From IMG/VR virus record IMGVR_UViG_3300032240_001531, positions 15,409 through 79,408 of that record: a stretch of DNA of 64,000 nt; one strand, written 5' to 3'. The notes under the pieces were generated by a model. It was not told the origin of the DNA. It saw only the letters and a program-made list of their open reading frames with translations, and made no database searches. The translations under genes were made by a program, and so were the position numbers. The stretch comes from a virus. Taxonomy: Duplodnaviria; Caudoviricetes. Numbering within the stretch: position 1 is the first letter of the stretch; each line of letters starts with the position of its first letter. Shown here piece after piece: positions 13,556-38,614 of the stretch.

Positions 13556-13605
13556 TTTAACATTTAAAATCTGATAAAATAGCTATATCTAATTAGGAGT
13601 ACAAC

Positions 13606-14406
13606 ATGGCAAACAATATCTCTAACGACCCAAACCTTATTTCCCAGTACGCACAGGATTTGGAAAAAGGTCCAGAGTCCGAAATTAAAACCGTTGCACC
13701 GTCAAACTCGAATGTAATTCTTCCGGGTGGGTTCTTGGCTAAGGATGGTTCTTTGATTAAATATGGTGAAGTTCGTGAGTTAAACGGCATGGATGAAGAA
13801 GCTGTATCAAAGGCTGGTTCTGCCGGTAAGGCGCTTGCTGCAATGTTGCAGCGAGGCGTAATTTCTATTGGAGCTAACGCAGTAGATAAGGCAGACCTTG
13901 ACCAATTATTGAGCGGTGACCGAGACGCTTTGTTGATCGGTATTCGTCGAGTTACTTTTGGCGATACCGTTGACTATGAGTTCCCTTGCCCACACTGTAA
14001 CACTGATTTAGAAGTAGCTGTTGATTTGGTTAAAGATGTCCCTGTCAGGGAGCTTGAAGACCCAATCAATGACAGAACTTTTACATACATGTCTAAAAAA
14101 CATGGAGCAATCGTAGTAGGTCTTCCTACTGGGGCTGCTCAAAAGAAACTTGTTGAAAACTCTGATAAGACAAATTCAGAGCTCAACACCATCTTACTCG
14201 CTTCATGTCTCAAATCAATAAACGGTGAGCCATCATTAGGTGCTAGCACTGCCCTTACATTAGGTATGGCTGACCGTGACGGTGTGATTAATGAAATTAT
14301 TAAGCGTAACCCGGGCCCACGCCTCGGGGAGGTGAAGACGACTTGCGAGGCTTGTGGTGAGGATATTCCTCTTCCACTGTCGTTAGCTGACTTGTTTCGT
14401 CTATAA
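13606..14406 (+). CDS. Tail assembly chaperone / baseplate hub assembly protein (T4 gp26-like)
   Basis: VRELNGMDEE, GDRDALLIGIRRVTFG, two CxxC pairs; lies between tube and tape measure. Confidence 0.75.
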   Translation: MANNISNDPNLISQYAQDLEKGPESEIKTVAPSNSNVILPGGFLAKDGSLIKYGEVRELNGMDEEAVSKAGSAGKALAAMLQRGVISIGANAVDKADLDQLLSGDRDALLIGIRRVTFGDTVDYEFPCPHCNTDLEVAVDLVKDVPVRELEDPINDRTFTYMSKKHGAIVVGLPTGAAQKKLVENSDKTNSELNTILLASCLKSINGEPSLGASTALTLGMADRDGVINEIIKRNPGPRLGEVKTTCEACGEDIPLPLSLADLFRL

Positions 14407-14542
14407 AGAAAAAGATTACGAACAACTACTCGACCAATATGAAGCACTATCTAGAACATTTCCCGGCTGGACGCTGTCTGACATCAGAAGTTTGTCCGTA
14501 AGAGAACGTAGAAATTGGCTGTCTAGGGCAGCCCGTAAATAA
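14387..14542 (+). CDS. Start-less +1-frame ORF, chaperone C-terminal extension (gpGT / T4 gp51-like)
   Basis: YEQLLDQYEALSRTFPGWTLSDIRSLSVRERRNWL; no ATG/GTG start; overlaps TTT CGT at the end of the upstream ORF. Confidence 0.7.
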   Translation: MTCFVYKEKDYEQLLDQYEALSRTFPGWTLSDIRSLSVRERRNWLSRAARK

Positions 14543-14551
14543 AGGTAGAAC

Positions 14552-16738
14552 ATGGCGGCGAGTGTAAAAAGCTCTTTTGGTTTAGGCGGAGGTACATCTA
14601 AAACCCGCCTAGTCGCTGACCTTAACGACGAATATAAAAAGCTTAATATTACCCTTAAAGAAACTGAAAAGTTATCTAAAAGCATTGCTGGTAATTTACA
14701 AAACTCTGGTAAAAAACGTCGTGGTGGCGGTGCTTCTTCCATGTCGGAACCTAGTGAACCGCCAGAGCCAGGAGAGCCGGGTGGACCAGGCGGTCCGGGT
14801 GGAGGGCCGCGAGGCGCTAGTGCCTCTGGTTCTAATGCAGGTAGTTGGGCTTCTGCCGTAAAAACAATGGCAGGTGCAGCAGTTACTGCCCTTGCTACGG
14901 GTGTTGATGGCGAGCAATATATAACCAACGATATAGCCCGTCGTCGTTTTGGTTTTTTTCAAGGGTCGTATAGTAGAAAAAATGACAATATTGGTACCAT
15001 AGGTGGCGGATTTGCGTTTGCTTCTATGTCCAGTCGCGGTACCCCTATTAGTGCTATGGATGCCGCTAATGCAACTATGGCCGGTAACTCTATGGGCCTT
15101 ATGTCTGGCCTTAAAAACTATAACACCATTATTAACAGCACAGCCGGTATCTCTAACGTAATGCCTGGTGTTGGCCTTGAAGGCGGTATGAATGCGCTAA
15201 GCGCCCTTAACCAAGGCTCAAGTATTAATAAGCTTCGTATGATTGGTATTAACGTACGCGACCAAAATGGTTTTATGCGTAATGTTGAGGATATTGCACG
15301 CGATCTTTGGCGTTCACTAAATGGAAGTAAATCTGGAACTGCGCGAATTACTGAAGCTGATTTGTCATACTCTTTGCAAGCAGGTAACTCAGTGGCCATG
15401 TTGCTTGACCAGTACTTTGGAACAGATGCTGTTCTTAAACAATCTATTATTTCTTACCTATTTCAATTTGCTAAAAATAATGGCGCAAAAGTTGGCGGCG
15501 GGTATCAAACTGAAGCGGGTAAAAAAGAACTTCTTACTACCGGTGCTAACCCGGGTATTACTCAAAGTATTGGTCGTAGAAATGCCGCAGGTAGTGCAAA
15601 CGTAAACGCTTATACTTCAGGTGGTGTTTTAGGTATTCAAGGCGCTAATGATTTAATTACAAGTTTTACTACAATGGCTACAGCAATGATGCCTTTAATG
15701 GAAAGTTTAGTTACAACAACCACGTTTAGCCAAACTCTAGGTGGAGCAAGTAATGGCACCGGAGGTATCCTTATTAAAGGACTTATTGATGCAGCTAAAG
15801 GTACCGTTGATGTTTCTCTGGAAGGCATTAAAGCAATTAAATATGTTGCTTTAGCCGCAGCAGTTGCTTTGGGTGTGGGAGCTATATCTAGAAACGTTAC
15901 GCAACAACGTGATGAGCAATGGTACAAGGACATTATGTCTGGTAAGAGCACTCCTGATAGCGGAACTTCTGCTTGGGCAGGTAGCGGTTGGGACGTAGGA
16001 ATTTTAGGTAGTTTGATGCTTAATCAAAACTACGACAACAGCTTGAATGGCACTAACGGAATGACCCCCAACGGAACTTCAGGTACGGGTGATAACGGAT
16101 TTCCTGGAGGAAGCCCTACTGGCGGGGGTGGCGGTGGAAGCACAATTATTCCTAAACCTAAAAAAGAAACTCATAACTCTTCCGAACGACGAAATCAAAA
16201 ACTTCATCCTAAAGGATTTAAACAGTCTAACGACAGCATTTTAGGGTGGGCTGGAAAAGTACTAAAAGGCATGGGCGCTCCGGTAACTAAATCAAATTTA
16301 GCTGCTATGGTATCTTGGATTCAAACCGAAAGTACCGGTAAAAATAATTATCAAACTTGGAATAACCCATTAAATACTACCCGCTCTGATGATAATTCTA
16401 TACCAGTAAATTATGCGGGATGGTCATTATCAAACCCAAATGGTGGTGTGCAAGAATTTGCTAATGAAGATGCCGGAATTGCGGCGACTATTGCAACTTT
16501 GCAACAGGATAATTTTAAAGATATTGCTACTGTGTTTAAAAAAGATAAAGGCATAGAAGCATTAAATGTAGCTGTAAAAGCCGACCAATGGGGTAGTCCA
16601 TCAATTACACCAGTAAAAAATATTACTATTAATGTTAATGGTGCTCAAGATACCGTAGGAATCGTAGAAGCTATTAAACAATATTTAGCTGATGAAGCAA
16701 TTAAAGATGAGGCTAGAGGCTCAGGAGGAGGACACTAA
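14552..16738 (+). CDS. Tape measure protein with C-terminal lysozyme-like domain
   Basis: 728 aa Gly/Ala-rich helical protein after the chaperone; C-terminal WIQTES...WNNPLNTT muralytic-like motif. Confidence 0.75.
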   Translation: MAASVKSSFGLGGGTSKTRLVADLNDEYKKLNITLKETEKLSKSIAGNLQNSGKKRRGGGASSMSEPSEPPEPGEPGGPGGPGGGPRGASASGSNAGSWASAVKTMAGAAVTALATGVDGEQYITNDIARRRFGFFQGSYSRKNDNIGTIGGGFAFASMSSRGTPISAMDAANATMAGNSMGLMSGLKNYNTIINSTAGISNVMPGVGLEGGMNALSALNQGSSINKLRMIGINVRDQNGFMRNVEDIARDLWRSLNGSKSGTARITEADLSYSLQAGNSVAMLLDQYFGTDAVLKQSIISYLFQFAKNNGAKVGGGYQTEAGKKELLTTGANPGITQSIGRRNAAGSANVNAYTSGGVLGIQGANDLITSFTTMATAMMPLMESLVTTTTFSQTLGGASNGTGGILIKGLIDAAKGTVDVSLEGIKAIKYVALAAAVALGVGAISRNVTQQRDEQWYKDIMSGKSTPDSGTSAWAGSGWDVGILGSLMLNQNYDNSLNGTNGMTPNGTSGTGDNGFPGGSPTGGGGGGSTIIPKPKKETHNSSERRNQKLHPKGFKQSNDSILGWAGKVLKGMGAPVTKSNLAAMVSWIQTESTGKNNYQTWNNPLNTTRSDDNSIPVNYAGWSLSNPNGGVQEFANEDAGIAATIATLQQDNFKDIATVFKKDKGIEALNVAVKADQWGSPSITPVKNITINVNGAQDTVGIVEAIKQYLADEAIKDEARGSGGGH

Positions 16739-32011: not shown

Positions 32012-33582
32012 GAACGCTGCTTCCATATCAGCCAGAGGCCGTTGATAAAATGACCGAACGTGGCAAAATGCTTGTTGCGTATGACCTTGGCCTTGGTAAA
32101 ACAGTTTTAACTATTGCCGCTATTGAAGAACTAATGGATGAGGGTAAGATAACCGAGCCCGGTTTAATCATTTGTTTGTCCAGCCTTAAATACCAGTGGC
32201 AGTCGTCAATTACAAAGTTTACTAATGGCTCAAACGCTATAGTTATTGACGGTAATCCTGAGCAACGTAAAAAACAATATGACCGTGCGATGCGCTGGAA
32301 AACTTCTAAAATCGATTACATCATTATGAATTATGAGCAAGTAGTTAATGACTGGGCTTCTGTAAGCAAATTACCTAGAGGGTTTATTGTTTTAGATGAA
32401 GCTACCGCTATTAAATCATTTAAATCAAAACGCGCTAAAGCCGTTAAAAAGTTAGCTACTTGTGAATATCGATTTGCCCTTACCGGTACTCCAGTAGAAA
32501 ATGGTAAACCAGAAGAACTATTTAGTATTATGCAGTTTGTAGACGATAGCGTTCTTGGCCGGTTTGATAAGTTTGATATGACATTTATTGTACGTAACGC
32601 TTGGGGCGGAGTAGAACGTTACCGTAACTTGTCTACTTTGCATGAACGTATGAAAACAGCATCTGTTCGTAAAGCTCAAAAAGACCCAGACGTCGCCCCG
32701 TTTTTGCCGGCTACAATACATAAAGACCCAATTTATGTGATGATGGATCGAAAAACAGCTAAGCTATATAAGCGTATTTCAGATGACTTAATACTGGACT
32801 TAGATAACGCTCAAACACTTTTTGGCAGTTCATTTAATGTACTATCTCATTATGGATTTGAAAAATCTTGGGGAGGTGCTGCTGACGAAGTGCGTGGAGA
32901 TTTAATGTCTAAAATAACTTGCCTTAAAATGCTTACTTGCTCACCAGAGCTATTAAAAATTAGTGCCGCTAAATATAAAGCAGGAAACGGAGAAGGTTCA
33001 TCATACGCTTCTTTGCTAAATGATGAAGAACTATTAGAAGGTCTATCAAGCCCAAAACTTGAGGCATTTATAAGTTATGCTAAAGACTTCCTAGAGCAAG
33101 ACGAATGTAATAAACTAGTAGTATTCTGTTCTTACGTAGACATGGTAGATATTATTGCTGACCGTCTTGGTCGTGACATTAGTGTTACGTATACAGGGCA
33201 ACTTGATGCTAAGACAAAGGAAAAACATAAAAATGCTCTCAATAACGACCCTTCTATTCGTGTGTTCGTTAGTTCTGACGCCGGCGGTTATGGCGTGGAC
33301 CTTCCGGCGGCGAACATGCTCATTAACTATGATTTACCTTGGTCTTCTGGTTTGGCTACTCAGCGTAACGGCCGCATTCGTAGGGCTTCTTCTGAGTGGA
33401 AAACCATTGTAATCCAAGACGTGTTAGTTACTAATTCTATCGAAGTACGTCAACATTCAGCCCTTCAACAAAAGAACGCAATTGCCGCAGCCGTTATTGA
33501 CGGCGAAGGTATTAATGATAATGGTGGAGTGGACTTGACAATTGGCACACTTCGTGGTTTCCTAGTAGATATGTCGGTGTAG
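31999..33582 (+). CDS. SNF2-family helicase
   Basis: DLGLGKT, LDEA, LTGTP, NYDLPW, QRNGRIRR. Confidence 0.9.
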   Translation: MGFVGTLLPYQPEAVDKMTERGKMLVAYDLGLGKTVLTIAAIEELMDEGKITEPGLIICLSSLKYQWQSSITKFTNGSNAIVIDGNPEQRKKQYDRAMRWKTSKIDYIIMNYEQVVNDWASVSKLPRGFIVLDEATAIKSFKSKRAKAVKKLATCEYRFALTGTPVENGKPEELFSIMQFVDDSVLGRFDKFDMTFIVRNAWGGVERYRNLSTLHERMKTASVRKAQKDPDVAPFLPATIHKDPIYVMMDRKTAKLYKRISDDLILDLDNAQTLFGSSFNVLSHYGFEKSWGGAADEVRGDLMSKITCLKMLTCSPELLKISAAKYKAGNGEGSSYASLLNDEELLEGLSSPKLEAFISYAKDFLEQDECNKLVVFCSYVDMVDIIADRLGRDISVTYTGQLDAKTKEKHKNALNNDPSIRVFVSSDAGGYGVDLPAANMLINYDLPWSSGLATQRNGRIRRASSEWKTIVIQDVLVTNSIEVRQHSALQQKNAIAAAVIDGEGINDNGGVDLTIGTLRGFLVDMSV

Positions 33583-33583
33583 T

Positions 33584-33757
33584 ATGCCTAACTATCATTA
33601 TAAATGCCTTGATTGTGAAGCTACTTGCACGATTACACAAAACATAAATGAAGAAACAAAGACACCTAAATGCCTTGCTTGCAATAAACCAATGACCAGG
33701 ATTTTTGGAAATCTTGCAGTTCAGTTTAGAGGCGGCGGCTGGGGAAGAGGAAACTAA
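33584..33757 (+). CDS. FmdB-family zinc ribbon protein (57 aa)
   Basis: MPNYHYKCLDC...CLAC...VQFRGGGW; below ORF-track cutoff. Confidence 0.75.
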   Translation: MPNYHYKCLDCEATCTITQNINEETKTPKCLACNKPMTRIFGNLAVQFRGGGWGRGN

Positions 33758-34011
33758 TGGCACTTGGACAAATGATGACCTTTGATGAATGGCTACAGTA
33801 CGGCCTTACACAAGGTTGGTGTGGACCATCAATTTGTGAGACACATGACGGTATGCCTATGACAATTGAAGAAGAAAACGCCTATGAGGCTGGGGAAGAC
33901 CCCTGCATCCATATACTTAGACTTTACGACAGTCAGTTAGATAAAGCTGAAGTAGAAAAAAATCATTCACCAAGCACTTGGAGAGCAACTAACTCCGGGT
34001 ATGAACTATAA
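33757..34011 (+). CDS. Hypothetical protein
   Basis: 84 aa, TAATG coupling, CETHDG and DPCIH motifs. Confidence 0.6.
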   Translation: MALGQMMTFDEWLQYGLTQGWCGPSICETHDGMPMTIEEENAYEAGEDPCIHILRLYDSQLDKAEVEKNHSPSTWRATNSGYEL

Positions 34012-34020
34012 GGAGATAAA

Positions 34021-34149
34021 ATGGCAAAAGGAAAGCCAGCACCAGCACCAGTTAAGAAAGCCGGAGACGGCCGCAATAACGGTAAAGCACCAAAAAAGCG
34101 CCCAAAGATTTTTGACGCAATTAAGCGCAAATTAGTTCGCAAGAAGTAA
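34021..34149 (+). CDS. Small basic protein (42 aa)
   Basis: AAGGAG SD, MAKGKPAPAPVKKAGDGRNNGK... Confidence 0.6.
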   Translation: MAKGKPAPAPVKKAGDGRNNGKAPKKRPKIFDAIKRKLVRKK

Positions 34150-34150
34150 T

Positions 34151-34183
34151 AAAAAACCCCCTGCTAAACAACAGGGGGTTTTT
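34151..34183. terminator. Bidirectional terminator between convergent operons
   Basis: AAAAAACCCCCTG-loop-CAGGGGGTTTTT. Confidence 0.85.
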
Positions 34184-34192
34184 ACTTAAGAT

Positions 34193-34561
34193 TTAAGCCA
34201 ATGGCTCTTCTTCTTCAGGGGCATCTACATGGTCTGTTAGTTCTGTTAGATCACCAAAGTCAGCAAGTTCTGGAGTTTCAGCAGCTGATTCTTCTAGTGC
34301 TTGTTTAACTTCAGGGTCATTTGCTGATTGTTTTGCAACAGCAGCACGGAAACCTTTTTCAATGTCTTCGTTTGAAATGTTTGCATCCCAAGCTAGTTGA
34401 ACACCAAAGTAAATGATGATTGATGAGAATACGGTAGCAACACCATTCAAAGCACCAAGTACTGGACCAATGCCTGATGCAGCACCAGTAGCCATACCTG
34501 GAATTGCAGCAAACATGACCACACCAATAGTGCGCTTAATTAAATTACCAAGTGCTTTCAT
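34193..34561 (-). CDS. Holin-like membrane protein
   Basis: Two hydrophobic segments and acidic tail; coupled downstream of the M23 peptidase. Confidence 0.5.
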   Translation of the reverse strand: MKALGNLIKRTIGVVMFAAIPGMATGAASGIGPVLGALNGVATVFSSIIIYFGVQLAWDANISNEDIEKGFRAAVAKQSANDPEVKQALEESAAETPELADFGDLTELTDHVDAPEEEEPLA

Positions 34562-35085
34562 TATTTAACCTCTTGCTTACAAGTTGGGCAAACCTTTGGG
34601 TCTGCGTGGACTGGGGCAGCTACTGGCTTAGCGGCTGGTTTAGCAGCTTTTTGCTTTGCAATCTGACCTTTAATGTATTCGTGAGCATTGTAAACTTTGC
34701 CACCAAACACGCCTTCGGCAGAGCCGCTTAGTGTAAAGTGCAAGTGACAGCCAAAACTGGCTGAACCTGTGTTACCTGCTTTACCAACTACGTCGCCTGA
34801 CTTCACGACTGTTCCAACCTTAAGTGGTGATGGTTCATTCATGTGGCAGTAACCAAAGTAGTGGCCATTATCTGTTTGTAGTACAACAACGTTACCAAGA
34901 ACGGTGCTTTTTGCTAAAGGTCTATTAAGTACGATTGTTCCATCATTTACAGCAAGCAAAGGCTCGCCAACAGGGAAACCGTTATAATCGGTTCCACGAT
35001 GACCTGGGGCTTTGTGCCACTGGTCTACTGCGCCAAATAGTGATCCGAGTTTGACCTTCTTTACCGGGAAAATCCAGTTACCCAT
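34561..35085 (-). CDS. M23 peptidase (probable endolysin)
   Basis: HRGTD, YCHM, GNTG...HLHF. Confidence 0.9.
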   Translation of the reverse strand: MGNWIFPVKKVKLGSLFGAVDQWHKAPGHRGTDYNGFPVGEPLLAVNDGTIVLNRPLAKSTVLGNVVVLQTDNGHYFGYCHMNEPSPLKVGTVVKSGDVVGKAGNTGSASFGCHLHFTLSGSAEGVFGGKVYNAHEYIKGQIAKQKAAKPAAKPVAAPVHADPKVCPTCKQEVK

Positions 35086-35134
35086 AGTGGGGTTCCTTTC
35101 GAAGGGTTGGAGGGGACAGTTCTATTGTCCCTTA

Positions 35135-35296
35135 TTAGTCTTTATTTCGCAGGGGGAACGTAGCTACCCATATAACTAATGAGCCGATAATACACCAGCC
35201 AACTACTGCCTTAGCAGAGCCTTCTAGTACAATCCAGGCAACAAACATGCCTAAAAGAGTCCATATTTGGCCTATAAGGTCATTTAAAAATTTCAT
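35135..35296 (-). CDS. Small two-TM membrane protein (53 aa)
   Basis: MKFLNDLIGQIWTLLGMFVAWIVLEGSAKAVVGWCIIGSLVIWVATFPLRNKD; ATGA overlap with the upstream frame. Confidence 0.7.
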   Translation of the reverse strand: MKFLNDLIGQIWTLLGMFVAWIVLEGSAKAVVGWCIIGSLVIWVATFPLRNKD

Positions 35297-35568
35297 TTGT
35301 CTTTCCTTCGGCTAGAACCTGCTGAATTTGATGCTGCACTTGCCGCACTTTGAGCAGCCATAGATGCAGCTTGTGTTGCAACCTGTGTAACAATAATTGC
35401 GGAAATAACTACCTTTTGTGCTTTTGCTCGCACAGCAGGAGGTAGGTCTGCACCAATGTTACCCAAAGCATTAAACGCATCCGCTAATCCTTGAAATGCT
35501 GCCCCCAACAATGGAATATCTGCAACTGGATTATTGTTGTTAAATTCCTTTGGGGGTATTATTTTAAA
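35293..35568 (-). CDS. -1-frame extension of the PA14 protein carrying a hydrophobic anchor
   Basis: Frame opens exactly at the T TTA AAA heptamer; ends VVISAIIVTQVA...SSRRKDK; no SD-led start. Confidence 0.7.
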   Translation of the reverse strand, partial: FKIIPPKEFNNNNPVADIPLLGAAFQGLADAFNALGNIGADLPPAVRAKAQKVVISAIIVTQVATQAASMAAQSAASAASNSAGSSRRKDK

Positions 35569-37022
35569 TTAATTACAAACGCTTGCCTAGGAAGGTACGC
35601 ACCATCGGCAAAATACTTTGGGTTGTTCTTTTTTGACCGTCTCTTATCAGCAGCAGTAGGCTTTGGGATGTTTGCTAAATCTACTTTTGCCTGAGCAACT
35701 TTGATTTCTAAGTCATCTACTTGTTGTGCCGCAGATTCAATAGCAGCAAATGTGCTGCTGTATTGGGCTTTTAAGTCACGCAAGTTAGCATCAGCTTCTA
35801 CTTTGGTATCGCTACTGTTTTGCCAAACAACTTCGGCATTACTCATAACATCTTCTAAAGGCCTAAGTATCTCTCGTTTACTCGCTAAAGCACTACCAGC
35901 ATATCCATAGGTAATTTGCTTACCGTCATAGTCATCACAAGCATTTCCATAAACTACACTTGCCTGTTCTTCAGCGGCTACTGCCTGAACATAAAGAACA
36001 GTCTTAGTGTTTAAAATAGCCAACAGTGCTGGGTCTTTAACCATGGTGACTACTGCATCTTGTGTAAAGAACGATGAAGGGGCAACTGTATAAGAGCTAC
36101 CGCCTAATGGCTTGTAGTAAAGACTAGAACAAGCACCGCCAGTCCACTCGTAGAACCACGCGTCAATAGCGTAAGACTTACCACCAGTGAAAGAAAATAG
36201 TCCAGTTGAGTTTGCTCCACAGCCCTTTAATGACCAGTCATTGATTACCTGAGTTCCGTTGATAGACATGTAGAAACCGTCATCGGCAGGAGCCTGGAAG
36301 TAAACCTTAGTGGTTGTTGGGTATGTGATGTAACCCTTGTAGTGAAGCATGATGTAGTCAGAGCCACAACCTAGAATGTCACCGCCACCCCAGTTAAGGT
36401 CAATGTTGCTTACAGTAGTTGTCTTACACTTGGTGTAAACAGTATCTGACTTCTGTGGAGGGTTTCCATAACGACCGATACCTGTGTAGACATCTACCTT
36501 CAAACCTGCACTACTGCCCTGACCACCAGCGTTGATTAACTTGGTGTCATAGTCATTTTTAGCCTGATTCATAACAGCTTGAGCGTTGTCGGCATTCTGC
36601 TGGGCTATTGCGTAAGAATCATAAGTATAATCTACTACATCAGCAGCAGCGTTTACTGCGGCTACTGCCTGAGCAACTGCTGCTTCAGCAGCACGAACAT
36701 CAGCAAAAACAACATCATAATTAGCTTTTTTGCCATTGTAATCAGCAACAGCAGCGTCTAAAGCATCTTTTGCCTCAGTAGCGGCAGTTTGAGCAGAGTT
36801 AATAAGGTCAGCCTGAGAGTTAGATGAGTTAGTCCAGCTATCAAGGTTAGCCTGTGCGTTGTTTAATTGATTCTGAAGGTCTTGTACCTTTGCTTGCGCC
36901 TCGGCAACTTTTTGGTTATAGTCAGTTGTGCTATCAGCCATAGCAGGGCTAGACAACCCAAACATAAGAAATAGTGAAGTTGCGGCTACAAATAAAGTAG
37001 AGAACTTACGCATTTTTTTCAT
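35559..37022 (-). CDS. Secreted coiled-coil protein with central PA14 domain
   Basis: Signal peptide ending SPAMA, Ala/Gln coiled coils on both sides of NIDLNWGGG...ADDG...INDW...FYEWTGGA. Confidence 0.8.
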   Translation of the reverse strand: MKKMRKFSTLFVAATSLFLMFGLSSPAMADSTTDYNQKVAEAQAKVQDLQNQLNNAQANLDSWTNSSNSQADLINSAQTAATEAKDALDAAVADYNGKKANYDVVFADVRAAEAAVAQAVAAVNAAADVVDYTYDSYAIAQQNADNAQAVMNQAKNDYDTKLINAGGQGSSAGLKVDVYTGIGRYGNPPQKSDTVYTKCKTTTVSNIDLNWGGGDILGCGSDYIMLHYKGYITYPTTTKVYFQAPADDGFYMSINGTQVINDWSLKGCGANSTGLFSFTGGKSYAIDAWFYEWTGGACSSLYYKPLGGSSYTVAPSSFFTQDAVVTMVKDPALLAILNTKTVLYVQAVAAEEQASVVYGNACDDYDGKQITYGYAGSALASKREILRPLEDVMSNAEVVWQNSSDTKVEADANLRDLKAQYSSTFAAIESAAQQVDDLEIKVAQAKVDLANIPKPTAADKRRSKKNNPKYFADGAYLPRQAFVINLK

Positions 37023-37302
37023 TGGTTTTTTCCTTTTCATTTTCGACATTTTTTAAAGATACGGTTTGCTGGAAGGCAGCATTAATTTCATTTAGAGTAA
37101 GTTTTCCATCTTCTAAGAAAGCCAAAGCAAGCAGTTCAACTACTTTAGCTACGGCCATTACACCGCCCATTACAGCGCTAAACCAGATAGGAATTTGGAT
37201 ACCGCTCATAGAGCCGGCGACTGTACCCGCACCGATTACGCCCAGTGCTGAGGCGACAAATGTTGCAAGTACACGCAACATTACATTGCCAAAAAGTTTC
37301 AT
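37006..37302 (-). CDS. Membrane protein, apparent paralog of 34193..34561
   Basis: Hydrophobic helices then DGKLTLNEINAAF. Confidence 0.6.
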   Translation of the reverse strand: MKLFGNVMLRVLATFVASALGVIGAGTVAGSMSGIQIPIWFSAVMGGVMAVAKVVELLALAFLEDGKLTLNEINAAFQQTVSLKNVENEKEKTNEKNA

Positions 37303-37382
37303 AATAATTTTCTAAACTAAGGATTTATAGGGGAGTTTAGGTATAGAAACGCGTGTTTTAAGCAGGTAACTGCGCGATTAAT

Positions 37383-37411
37383 TTGACAAATAGGGTCAAT
37401 TCCATTATCTA
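37383..37411 (+). promoter_or_regulatory. Sigma-A type promoter with inverted repeat over the -35
   Basis: TTGACA-N17-TATCCT; TTGAC-N7-GTCAA. Confidence 0.55.
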
Positions 37412-37548
37412 CTAGCCAGGTGTGTTTTTTTGGCTAAACGTTGTTTGGCTTCGTATTTCTATGCTATGGTCTTACCTATAACTGAATATAGTGTCACTTC
37501 GACAATAAACGACCCCAGTACTAAAGCAATGAAAGGTAAGGTCGCCAA

Positions 37549-38076
37549 ATGAAAAAGTACGTAATTATAGCCAGCATACTTGTAACACTTGCTGGTTGTT
37601 CCGCCTCTACAGCAACAGCTGTAGCTCAAATTACACAAGAAACAAAGCAACATCAAGTTAAACCATTAACCTTAATTGAGACAGCTAAAGCACACCGCAA
37701 TACTGCTCAAATGAGGCATGTAGTTAAGTATCTGAAAACTCGCGTAGGAAAAACATCTTATGTGTTTTCAGGTGCCAGTCCCCGTGGATGGGACTGTTCA
37801 GGTCTAGTACGCTGGACCTATGAACGATTCGGTATAGTATTACCGCACTCGGCAAATGCCCAAGGGCATATTGGAACCCGCGTCTCAAAACCAAAACTTG
37901 GAGACATAGTTGTGTTTGCTTATAACGGCAGCACTAATTTCTATCACGCCGCCATTTACATTGGAAATGGAAAAATAATTAATGCACATCGTGGAGCTAA
38001 CGCTACGATAATTCAACCGCTTACAGATTACAAAAGCGGGCAAATCCGATTTGTCCGTATAGTAAAAACACTGTAA
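37549..38076 (+). CDS. NlpC/P60 (C40) peptidoglycan hydrolase, predicted lipoprotein
   Basis: LAGC lipobox, DCSG catalytic Cys, HAAIYIGNG. Confidence 0.9.
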   Translation: MKKYVIIASILVTLAGCSASTATAVAQITQETKQHQVKPLTLIETAKAHRNTAQMRHVVKYLKTRVGKTSYVFSGASPRGWDCSGLVRWTYERFGIVLPHSANAQGHIGTRVSKPKLGDIVVFAYNGSTNFYHAAIYIGNGKIINAHRGANATIIQPLTDYKSGQIRFVRIVKTL

Positions 38077-38083
38077 ACTAATT

Positions 38084-38122
38084 GTGGGCCGGATGTGCCT
38101 CTCACTCTCCGGCCCACTTTTT
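38084..38122 (+). terminator. Intrinsic terminator
   Basis: GTGGGCCGGA...TCCGGCCCAC then TTTTT. Confidence 0.8.
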
Positions 38123-38156
38123 ACAAGTTCGATTTGTAGTGTGGTACACTTTACAC

Positions 38157-38552
38157 ATGGCATACATCGGAGATAAAAAACGCGTCTATCAAAACACTTG
38201 GCTTAATTTACGCAGGCTTGCTTGGATTGAATCACAAGGCGGCAAATGCGTTAAATGCGGTTCTGAAGAGCGTTTAGAGATAGACCATATTAATAGACAT
38301 GAAAAGTCTATGAAAATATCAGCTTTGTGGTCCAGGTCAGCCAGTGTTCGTGAAGTTGAATTAAGCAAATGTCAAGTACTTTGCCATACTTGCCACAAAG
38401 AAAAGACTATTGCCGAATCTACTACGGCTAAATGCGGTCAAATAGCTATGTATAATAAAGGCTGTAGATGTGACGAGTGTAGAGAAGCCAACCGATTGCG
38501 TGTAAGTAAAGGTAGGGAATTAAAAAAACAACGTCTTAATACGCCCCTATAG
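38157..38552 (+). CDS. HNH endonuclease (leaderless start)
   Basis: CVKCG...LEIDHI...CQVLCHTCHKEKT plus GCRCDEC; TACACT lies 6 nt before the ATG. Confidence 0.85.
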   Translation: MAYIGDKKRVYQNTWLNLRRLAWIESQGGKCVKCGSEERLEIDHINRHEKSMKISALWSRSASVREVELSKCQVLCHTCHKEKTIAESTTAKCGQIAMYNKGCRCDECREANRLRVSKGRELKKQRLNTPL

Positions 38553-38614
38553 CTCAACGGCAGAGCGCCGCTCTTGTAAAGCGGAGGTTGTGATATCGTA
38601 ATTCACTGGGGGCT
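38543..38614 (+). tRNA. tRNA-Thr(UGU) with non-canonical T arm
   Basis: Acceptor GCCCCTA/TGGGGGC, D stem GCTC/GAGC, anticodon arm CCGCT-CTTGTAA-AGCGG; no encoded CCA. Confidence 0.8.

Follow-up and report, generated by a model that had tools for sequence, protein, structure and literature searches.

In phage lambda, ribosomes that slip by −1 on an X_XXY_YYZ heptamer close to the 3′ end of the G open reading frame (ORF) make a C-terminally extended product (GT) besides the short one, and this arrangement is conserved across divergent phages. The frameshifts known in phages concern, with few exceptions, genes for tail chaperones and capsids. Bacterial −1 frameshifting can also decide whether a protein is soluble or membrane-bound, as in E. 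coli copA, where the shift truncates the product to a soluble chaperone, CopA(Z). The case considered here is a minus-strand gene in a 64,000-nucleotide (nt) stretch of viral DNA (Duplodnaviria; Caudoviricetes), positions 15,409 to 79,408 of IMG/VR record IMGVR_UViG_3300032240_001531; the whole of that stretch is called the window below. The gene encodes a protein with a PA14 domain, and comparison of its relatives points to a genuine programmed −1 ribosomal frameshift at its 3′ end (a probability of about 0.86), by which a predicted membrane anchor would be added to part of the product. It would share with lambda G/GT the −1 slip on X_XXY_YYZ near the ORF end and the two products, but these would be exported envelope proteins and not cytoplasmic chaperones, and the stimulator would be a strong stem-loop. 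With respect to copA the polarity is opposite, the shift in the PA14 gene adding the anchor.

A choice between a soluble form and one with a transmembrane (TM) region specified by an alternative frame is described for Ebola sGP/GP and arterivirus nsp2TF (PMC5009743). Ebola uses transcriptional slippage and the arterivirus protein-stimulated −2/−1 frameshifting, and both are eukaryotic RNA viruses; they are the closest functional parallels to the phage gene. Searches of the full-text literature found no frameshift in a phage by which a membrane anchor is added, and none within a lysis cassette.

Slip site, stem-loop and their conservation

The 0-frame ORF of the PA14 gene ends AAT TTA AAA TAA (coordinates of all features are in Table 1), and within this the heptamer U_UUA_AAA is in the phase expected for a −1 slip. 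In the −1 frame there is a TAA directly 5′ of the heptamer, and in the 0-frame a TAA directly 3′ of it. Following a short spacer there is a stem-loop, to whose outer and middle helices folding with RNAfold adds an inner one of 4 base pairs (bp). The minimum free energy (MFE) is −17.7 kcal/mol, a z of −2.85 relative to dinucleotide shuffles, 3 of 200 of which fold as well. A scan of the stem-loop against Rfam gave no family, the two sub-threshold hits being chance ones. An earlier note, made from the letters of the window, had described the ORF end, the heptamer at 35568-35562, both stops, the spacer, the stem pairs, an 89-amino-acid (aa) extension and the ATGA in which the extension ends, and every one of these coordinates is correct on the minus strand. 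Trypsin cuts at the junction Lys, so that a peptide across the junction would be seen only after incomplete digestion or with a different enzyme; the −1-frame peptide next to the junction would do equally well.

Among viral contigs, relatives of the PA14 protein turned up in 46 loci (47–95% identity) and those of the extension in 23. Forty-three rows were checked for their ORF ends, six of which ran off the contig end to leave 37 complete, and 39 distinct related sequences were carried forward. An in-phase X_XXA_AAA ends 36 of the 37 complete ORFs, and the remaining one, locus L043, is an in-frame fusion. In all 39 distinct sequences the heptamer has the form U_UUA_AAA, C_CCA_AAA or, once, A_AAA_AAA, and intermediates are absent. 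The 0-frame stop is directly after the heptamer in 35 of the 39 and one codon later in the other four. When 47 sites are listed (overlapping loci included), the −1 frame upstream of the heptamer is open for just 0–16 codons, and the extension ranges from 75 to 110 codons.

A maximum-likelihood tree was made of the 36 full-length 0-frame proteins (the partial rows L042, L048 and L060 were excluded). Twenty-one of its rows have C_CCA_AAA, 14 have U_UUA_AAA and one has A_AAA_AAA, and the U_UUA_AAA rows are in two well-supported clades, of 11 and 3. The switch from CCC to UUU involves three bases together, position three of one codon and positions one and two of the codon that follows, with Pro becoming Leu. 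Such a concerted triple change without intermediates is explained by selection for identical X bases, and selection on either protein fails to explain it. Synonymous-site analysis of 38 sequences shows the slip-site Lys codon to be AAA in 37/37 and the Pro before it to be CCA in 23/23. In the 5′ arm of the stem, the first Pro codon is CCC in 31/31, the second is CCA in 27 and CCC in 5, and the Lys codon that follows is AAG in 27/27. Forty codons downstream the constraint is gone, with Lys specified by AAA in 16 and AAG in 16, and Pro by all four of its codons. Both the heptamer and the stem show suppressed synonymous variation.

A stem-loop begins 2–6 nt past the heptamer in every one of the 39 folds (medians: 55 nt span, 19 bp and −21 kcal/mol). 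The sequence of its inner helix differs by clade with pairing retained, and in the most divergent clade CCCAGC/GCUGGG or CCCAAC/GUUGGG, one base out of register, replaces CCCCCAA/UUGGGGG. In a recoding test the −1-frame peptide was held while synonymous codons were redrawn, with 300 recodings per sequence, and the native MFE was compared with the MFEs of these. For the stem-loop region of the frameshift loci the mean z is −3.4, with 36 of 39 below −1.64 (for the window it is −3.09); for a control region 75 nt downstream in the same loci it is +0.49 (38 sequences). In a cruder version of the test, the homologous region of 55 distinct in-frame relatives has a mean z of +0.76 with none below −1.64, and 11 further frameshift loci have a mean of −1.8 with seven below that value. 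Because the signal is present in the split loci and there is none in the 55 in-frame relatives, the stem-loop goes with the frameshift layout and not with the peptide. With the heptamer and the fold present throughout, and the recoding scores low in all except three of the 39, the proposal in the earlier note that this is a −1 frameshifting signal is supported.

That note had also asked for a single-nucleotide error to be excluded. Contigs of three other DNA runs, two of which are from other studies, span the heptamer without an indel there. In one relative there is a compensating insertion/deletion pair 12–16 nt upstream of the heptamer. Metatranscriptome contigs (X20) cover parts of the gene of a relative and give neither strand nor level of expression; in the only one that reaches the site the length of the A run is unchanged, and it ends 9 nt past the heptamer.

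The two predicted products and the anchor module

Past the slip site, conservation of the residues I-I-P-P-K-E-F ... N-P ... I-P-x-L-G goes together with synonymous variation of their codons (Ile is ATT in 15 and ATA in 21, Glu is GAG in 11 and GAA in 20, and Asn is AAT in 21 and AAC in 14). In 36 of the 39 sequences no ATG, GTG or TTG precedes codon 19 of the −1 frame (in five the first is at codon 27–50), and Shine-Dalgarno (SD)-like sites are few. Comparison of the relatives shows the −1 frame to be coding from the heptamer onward, as had been proposed from the overlap of its stop with the start of the next gene.

The extension consists of a linker, a helix with the conserved motif N-I-G-A-D-L-P-P-x-V-R, a hydrophobic segment, a Ser/Ala-rich stretch and a basic end. 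In 16 aligned members the hydrophobic segment has a Kyte-Doolittle hydropathy over 19 residues (KD19) of 1.64–2.18, and together with the basic end it fits the stop-transfer anchor of an exported protein. A profile of 16 such modules was searched against 1.84 billion protein cluster representatives; 649 match at E ≤ 1e-3 and 312 at E ≤ 1e-10, and 150 matches were listed. Among these 150, inspection puts the match at the C-terminal end of the protein, the exception being a 2552-aa repeat protein. Eight of the 150 best representatives are shorter than 100 aa, stand-alone calls of the kind that frameshift loci yield. The module is in frame in L043, L063–L066, P0002–P0004 and P0008, of which L043 (912 aa) is of the coiled-coil/PA14 type, L066 leads up to the module with signal peptide, PA14 domain and Pro-rich linker, and P0008 (514 aa) has a stalk-PA14-stalk layout like that of the window protein. 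In proteins that bear the module, PA14, fn3 or SUEL-lectin domains precede it, along with long Pro-rich linkers. Comparison of these proteins shows the extension to be a genuine C-terminal module, fused in frame in most relatives, in agreement with the original view of the hydrophobic segment and basic tail as an anchor.

In the 2552-aa protein (P0005), the N-terminal half of the module (profile positions 6–43) is matched in 21 separate stretches; this helical part can therefore occur as a tandem repeat away from a C-terminus.

The module has a general likeness to the LPXTG and PEP-CTERM sorting signals, with which it shares the tripartite arrangement of motif, hydrophobic helix and basic C-terminus on diverse exported proteins. 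However, its helical motif is longer, no sortase-like gene was seen, and it has a constant 53-aa membrane partner (below). Models of sorting signals (NCBIfam, E ≤ 0.1; Pfam) do not match the extension, and those in NCBIfam do not match four in-frame relatives either. Searches with the extension for families in NCBIfam, Pfam and PHROGs gave nothing above noise, and one of the ESM Atlas gave no usable hit. Among about 185,000 bacterial and archaeal species genomes there were 103 pattern matches to the anchor module, none of which was confirmed, and no clue to a prophage or a host was obtained from them. In a cluster look-up of 10 relatives the names were ‘hypothetical protein’ plus one ‘TonB’, the latter probably an artefact of the Pro-rich linker.

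As to the 0-frame product, in an alignment of 22 homologs most start at the residue aligned with M10, and M10 is the likely true start, the annotated one being probably 27 nt upstream of it. (Counted from its first ATG, the ORF runs over the last 44 nt of an upstream 98-aa gene, 37006-37049, minus strand.) The pattern of a signal peptide is kept in the 22 aligned homologs, with a KD19 hydropathy of 1.68 and no lipobox Cys. An AlphaFold2 model built on the 22-sequence alignment (mean predicted local distance difference test score, pLDDT, of 80) has residues 1–38 as a disordered signal region. What follows is predicted to be an antiparallel stalk, each of whose two helical arms is about 125 residues long; a beta domain sits at the tip, and the N- and C-termini lie together at the base. 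The Pfam match of the tip domain to PF07691 (E=3.7e-6) scores 27.2 bits against a cutoff of 24. Its best Foldseek matches are the Flo5/Flo1/Epa adhesins, the PA14 domain of the Marinomonas RTX-adhesin (MpIBP) and PA14 domains of RsgI-type anti-sigma proteins, with E of about 1e-8 to 1e-7 and probability 1.00. The 487-aa protein with signal peptide, coiled coil and PA14 domain that had been described from the letters is thus recovered, by the M10 start, the Pfam score and the predicted fold with its long helices. A motif Ala-Asp-Asp-Gly-Phe is invariant across the 22 homologs, and its position we take to be that of the calcium and sugar site of PA14 lectins. The PA14 head may bind glycan. The fold is common to Flo/Epa, the Marinomonas adhesin and clostridial RsgI, but here it is phage-encoded and at the tip of what is predicted to be a two-helix hairpin. 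When the PA14 ORF was compared with isolated phages the PA14 domain alone was matched, in Pelagibacter phage HTVC008M, at 41% identity over 23% of the query.

TM53, the cassette and the source genome

The gene whose start overlaps the −1-frame stop encodes a small membrane protein, here called TM53, which by inspection has two hydrophobic stretches and a charged tail. It has an invariant core, Q-x-W-T-L-x-G...A-W..L-E-G-S-A, and its conservation is above that of the PA14 protein. A TM53 homolog is 3′ of the anchor-bearing gene in all related loci, and IMG/VR has at least 595 loci with a TM53 gene. No family for it was found in Pfam, PHROGs or NCBIfam, the ESM Atlas has unnamed clusters only, and there was no match among 50,697 isolated phage records.

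A reverse search from TM53, with 80 loci kept of the at least 595, shows how the anchor is carried. It is fused in frame to an ORF of at least 100 further codons in 66 of the 80; in 11 there is a short frame that opens at an in-phase CCCAAAA, TTTAAAA or AAAAAAA; two are cut by the locus end; and in one, L135, no anchor module was detected in the 3.5 kb upstream that were checked. The module is upstream of TM53 in 79/80, with a stop-to-start gap of 0–8 nt in 75 of the 79. Judged from these sequences, the frameshift layout is a minority variant of a widespread two-gene unit, of which the anchored form is the widespread one. Two loci, L072 and L073, have I-I-A-P-K-V-F past the slip site and about 456 nt between extension and TM53, and may be a decaying or rearranged variant. 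The codons for RRKDK at the end of the anchor form, by inspection, an AAGGA SD-like site about 8 nt before the TM53 ATG, and the basic tail and the ribosome-binding site of TM53 may constrain each other. TM53 may be the functional core of the module.

The PA14 gene and TM53 are in a minus-strand cassette (37302–34193) set within an otherwise plus-strand genome. The first gene of the cassette, for the 98-aa membrane protein, has syntenic homologs in related loci and no Pfam family. Downstream of TM53 are genes for an M23 peptidase and a further membrane protein. Divergent beside the cassette, and syntenic in many related loci, is a gene for an NlpC/P60 hydrolase, a second wall hydrolase besides the M23 peptidase. 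M23 peptidase or NlpC/P60 genes recur beside the anchor/TM53 pair in distant loci. What is present looks like the lysis cassette of an uncultured myovirus. Also flanking the region are a 156-aa ORF with many Cys and His pairs, HNH endonuclease-like by inspection (38082-38552, plus strand), and a 57-aa ORF with two CxxC pairs, zinc-ribbon-like by inspection (33584-33757, plus strand).

Table 1. Positions, in the window, of the PA14 gene, its frameshift signals and the neighbouring genes
Feature	Position	Strand	Basis or remarks
0-frame ORF of the PA14 protein	35559..37049	−	496 aa from first ATG; 487 aa from M10 (37022); stop TAA 35559-35561 included
Predicted Sec signal peptide, residues 10-38	36936..37022	−	Basic n-region, hydrophobic core, A-M-A then D-S; by inspection
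Predicted long helix 1, residues 41-169, stalk arm one	36543..36929	−	AlphaFold2, pLDDT ~90-98
PA14 beta domain, residues 171-338, predicted stalk tip	36036..36539	−	Pfam PF07691 and Foldseek
Predicted long helix 2, residues 340-459, stalk arm two	35673..36032	−	AlphaFold2; returns C-terminus beside N-terminus
Disordered basic Pro-containing tail, residues 460-496	35562..35672	−	pLDDT <50; IPKP and KK motifs conserved
Slippery heptamer U_UUA_AAA	35562..35568	−	X_XXY_YYZ phase
Spacer UAAUA, 5 nt	35557..35561	−	Holds 0-frame stop UAA 35559-35561; sequence and folding
Three-tier stem-loop, 55 nt	35502..35556	−	Inner helix CAAC/GUUG
Outer helix CCCCCAA/UUGGGGG	35556-35550 with 35508-35502	−	
Middle helix GGAAU/AUUCC	35548-35544 with 35517-35513	−	
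−1-frame extension, 89 codons after Lys	35296..35562	−	Junction ...NLK-IIPPK...
Predicted TM segment VVISAIIVTQVATQAASMA, extension residues 53-71 from heptamer	35356..35412	−	KD19 hydropathy 1.64
Basic end RRKDK, predicted cytoplasmic	35296..35310	−	Sequence
−1-frame stop TGA	35293..35295	−	Inside ATGA opening the next gene at 35296
98-aa membrane protein, holin-like by inspection	37006..37302	−	First cassette gene; PHROG phrog_26427 E=4.5e-21, ‘nuclease’ label
TM53, 53-aa two-TM protein	35135..35296	−	Pinholin-like by size and topology only
M23 peptidase, 174 aa, candidate endolysin	34561..35085	−	Pfam PF01551 E=2.7e-18; PHROG endolysin and metallo-endopeptidase families
122-aa membrane protein, acidic tail	34193..34561	−	Last cassette gene; syntenic; no family in Pfam, PHROGs or NCBIfam
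NlpC/P60 hydrolase	37549-38076	+	Lipoprotein signal L-A-G-C

The window is part of a 79.4-kb IMG/VR record that is estimated to be 87% complete, with a G+C content of about 42%. Its PHROG matches are those of a myovirus (major head protein, tail sheath, baseplate wedge, DnaB-like helicase, DNA polymerase and ribonucleotide reductase). The sheath protein is nearest to those of BRock-type Streptomyces myophages, at about 36% identity over about half its length, which is a weak hint that the host may be an actinobacterium without an outer membrane. The DNA of 35100-37100 has no match among isolated phages. The tail and sheath genes are at about 10–27 kb on the plus strand, and the PA14 gene, at 35.3–37.0 kb on the minus strand, is about 20 kb from the sheath gene.

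Several known identities were considered and rejected. A tail chaperone of the G/GT type is ruled out by position, the gene being among those for the M23 peptidase and membrane proteins and not in the interval between tube and tape measure. [A cursory check of the open frames from the tube-like gene to the downstream 728-aa ORF (12.9–14.7 kb, including 13597-14542, plus strand) showed no obvious frameshift of tail-chaperone type there.] Stop codon reassignment was set aside, the 0-frame beyond the UAA being short and, by inspection, unconserved. To the unimolecular spanin of phage T1, gp11, there is a likeness in the N-terminal export signal, an ectodomain of periplasmic length and a C-terminal TM segment (the last in the trans-frame product only), and to Rz in the coiled coils and a weak PHROG match to an Rz-like spanin (E=3.7e-4, residues 17–100). 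However, the ectodomain of the PA14 protein has a PA14 lectin fold and there is no lipobox. A canonical spanin, unimolecular or Rz/Rz1, is ruled out, with no lipobox Cys and no small lipoprotein ORF embedded or adjacent; a lipobox scan of 33500-38600 found that of the NlpC/P60 gene only.

Alternatives, proposed mechanism and significance

Several of the observations count against a programmed frameshift onto an anchor in a lysis cassette. The loci are kin, so that the counts given are not of independent events, though the split and in-frame layouts still differ clearly. Neither U_UUA_AAA nor C_CCA_AAA is among the most efficient heptamers reported for E. coli, the relevant tRNA set being that of the host. 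In the recoding test L034, L039 and L040 barely beat their recodings (z −0.8 to −1.4), and in the cruder one L072 and L073 have z of about −0.7, L081 of −1.22 and L126 of −0.02; the weak scores of the last two are probably due to imprecise register. Stem bases also encode the conserved Pro-Pro-Lys and Leu-Gly. In a fixed-register alignment covariation is weak: three pairs change on both sides, a number reached by 287 of 500 shuffles, and the outer helix is without double-sided changes. The low count comes from the near-invariance of the outer helix and from the divergent clade being one base out of register. Of the features for which the earlier note had looked to homologs, the heptamer and a short spacer are kept and covariation of the stem is weak, and the structural case therefore rests mainly on the synonymous-recoding tests. 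With regard to the anchor, the hydrophobic segment of the window protein is marginal for a TM helix, at 1.64 and with Gln and Thr inside, and AlphaFold of the extension alone gives a low-confidence model (pLDDT 54) with two-helix secondary structure in which the TM segment is helical. The lysis role is proposed from gene neighbourhood only.

If the extension were a separate gene, a membrane protein of about 70 aa would be made without frameshifting, from an internal TTG or GTG or by termination-reinitiation at a non-canonical codon immediately past the UAA. Stand-alone proteins of 69–94 aa are called in public data (the eight among the 150 best representatives), and in most loci a TTG or GTG is at codon 19–23 of the −1 frame. 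However, the residues ahead of it are conserved as protein with synonymous variation, and in five of the 39 loci there is no canonical start until codon 27–50, so that conserved residues would be lost; SD-like sites are mostly absent. Reinitiation also leaves unexplained why the third base of the codon before the slip site is always X (T with TTA, C with CCA) and why the AAA is invariant. Large exported proteins end in the module in 66 of the 80 TM53 loci, a normal context that a free version would lack. Two separate genes are very improbable, and slippage by RNA polymerase, with one A more or fewer in the mRNA, is somewhat more so. The site does hold an A run, of seven in L034, but in 38 of 39 sequences the run is of four, far below the lengths on which bacterial polymerases slip appreciably. 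Transcriptional slippage does make soluble and membrane forms of the Ebola glycoprotein (PMC5009743). The conserved XXX triplet and a stem-loop at 5–6 nt are, however, features of ribosomal slippage, and the RNA contig with its unchanged A run points in the same direction, weakly, given its end 9 nt past the heptamer.

That most relatives are in frame, and that a single deletion would give the split layout, could suggest a broken gene from which the truncated product alone is made, or an assembly error of one nucleotide. Yet 39 distinct sequences, with protein identities as low as 47%, have the heptamer and are split at the same codon, the extension is still under protein-level constraint, a dedicated RNA structure is confined to the split lineage, and the contigs of other runs have no indel at the site; either explanation is scarcely credible. 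Alternatively the frameshifting may be real but chiefly regulatory, with its frequency setting the synthesis of TM53, a possible holin whose overlapping start only shifted ribosomes would reach, and the anchored isoform being secondary. The ATGA overlap in the window, the short stop-start gap in 75 of 79 loci and the better conservation of TM53 than of the PA14 protein are in keeping with this. Against it, TM53 may initiate independently from the AAGGA ahead of its ATG, protein-level conservation of the extension and its in-frame position in most relatives argue for a function of its own, and in L072 and L073 some 456 nt separate the frameshift gene from TM53. A chiefly regulatory role is about as improbable as two separate genes.

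Programmed frameshifting to yield an anchored isoform most likely proceeds as follows. Ribosomes with UUA-AAA in their decoding sites would pause at the 55-nt stem-loop 5 nt downstream, and a fraction would slip back onto UUU-AAA. Those that do not shift would terminate at the adjacent UAA, to give a PA14 stalk that is exported and left untethered, about 450 residues long once the signal peptide has been removed. Those that shift would add 89 residues with the motif helix, a moderately hydrophobic TM helix and the basic end. In the long form a type-I stop-transfer anchor would fix the stalk by its base to the cytoplasmic membrane, and the PA14 head would point outward and project, if 0.15 nm is allowed per helical residue of the model, by roughly 19 nm. 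Membrane insertion, this topology, the isoform ratio and its constancy, release of the short form and action at the cell surface are what we infer. With low confidence, the anchored stalk and TM53 might cooperate in the control of lysis, in disruption of the envelope or in the masking of wall receptors, and, most speculatively, the frameshift lineage might gain from having a free form or a set ratio of free to tethered forms. A bolder and rather unlikely proposal is that anchor module and TM53 are an unrecognised, widespread two-gene lysis unit, in which a lectin-tipped stalk or linker, tethered beside the pinholin-like TM53, would couple the state of wall or glycan to lysis and the frameshift would be a translational timer of lysis. 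It is similarly doubtful, as part of this, that a set fraction would be free with the rest tethered while shift frequency also metered TM53 via the overlapping start.

The mechanism is known in kind; what appear to be new are the gene family, an optional tether on an exported lectin stalk and the anchor/TM53 pair. Present annotation treats the extension as an isolated hypothetical protein of 70–90 aa. The locus would provide a well-supported frameshift in an exported envelope protein, with the slip deciding whether there is a membrane anchor. In the lysis cassettes, as they appear to be, of uncultured freshwater phages the anchor/TM53 pair, which has no name in the databases and is carried by no cultured phage, is joined to many lectin-like ectodomains, and sister phages in which the fusion is in frame are natural controls, which would make this a clean system for learning why a fixed ratio of isoforms is selected.

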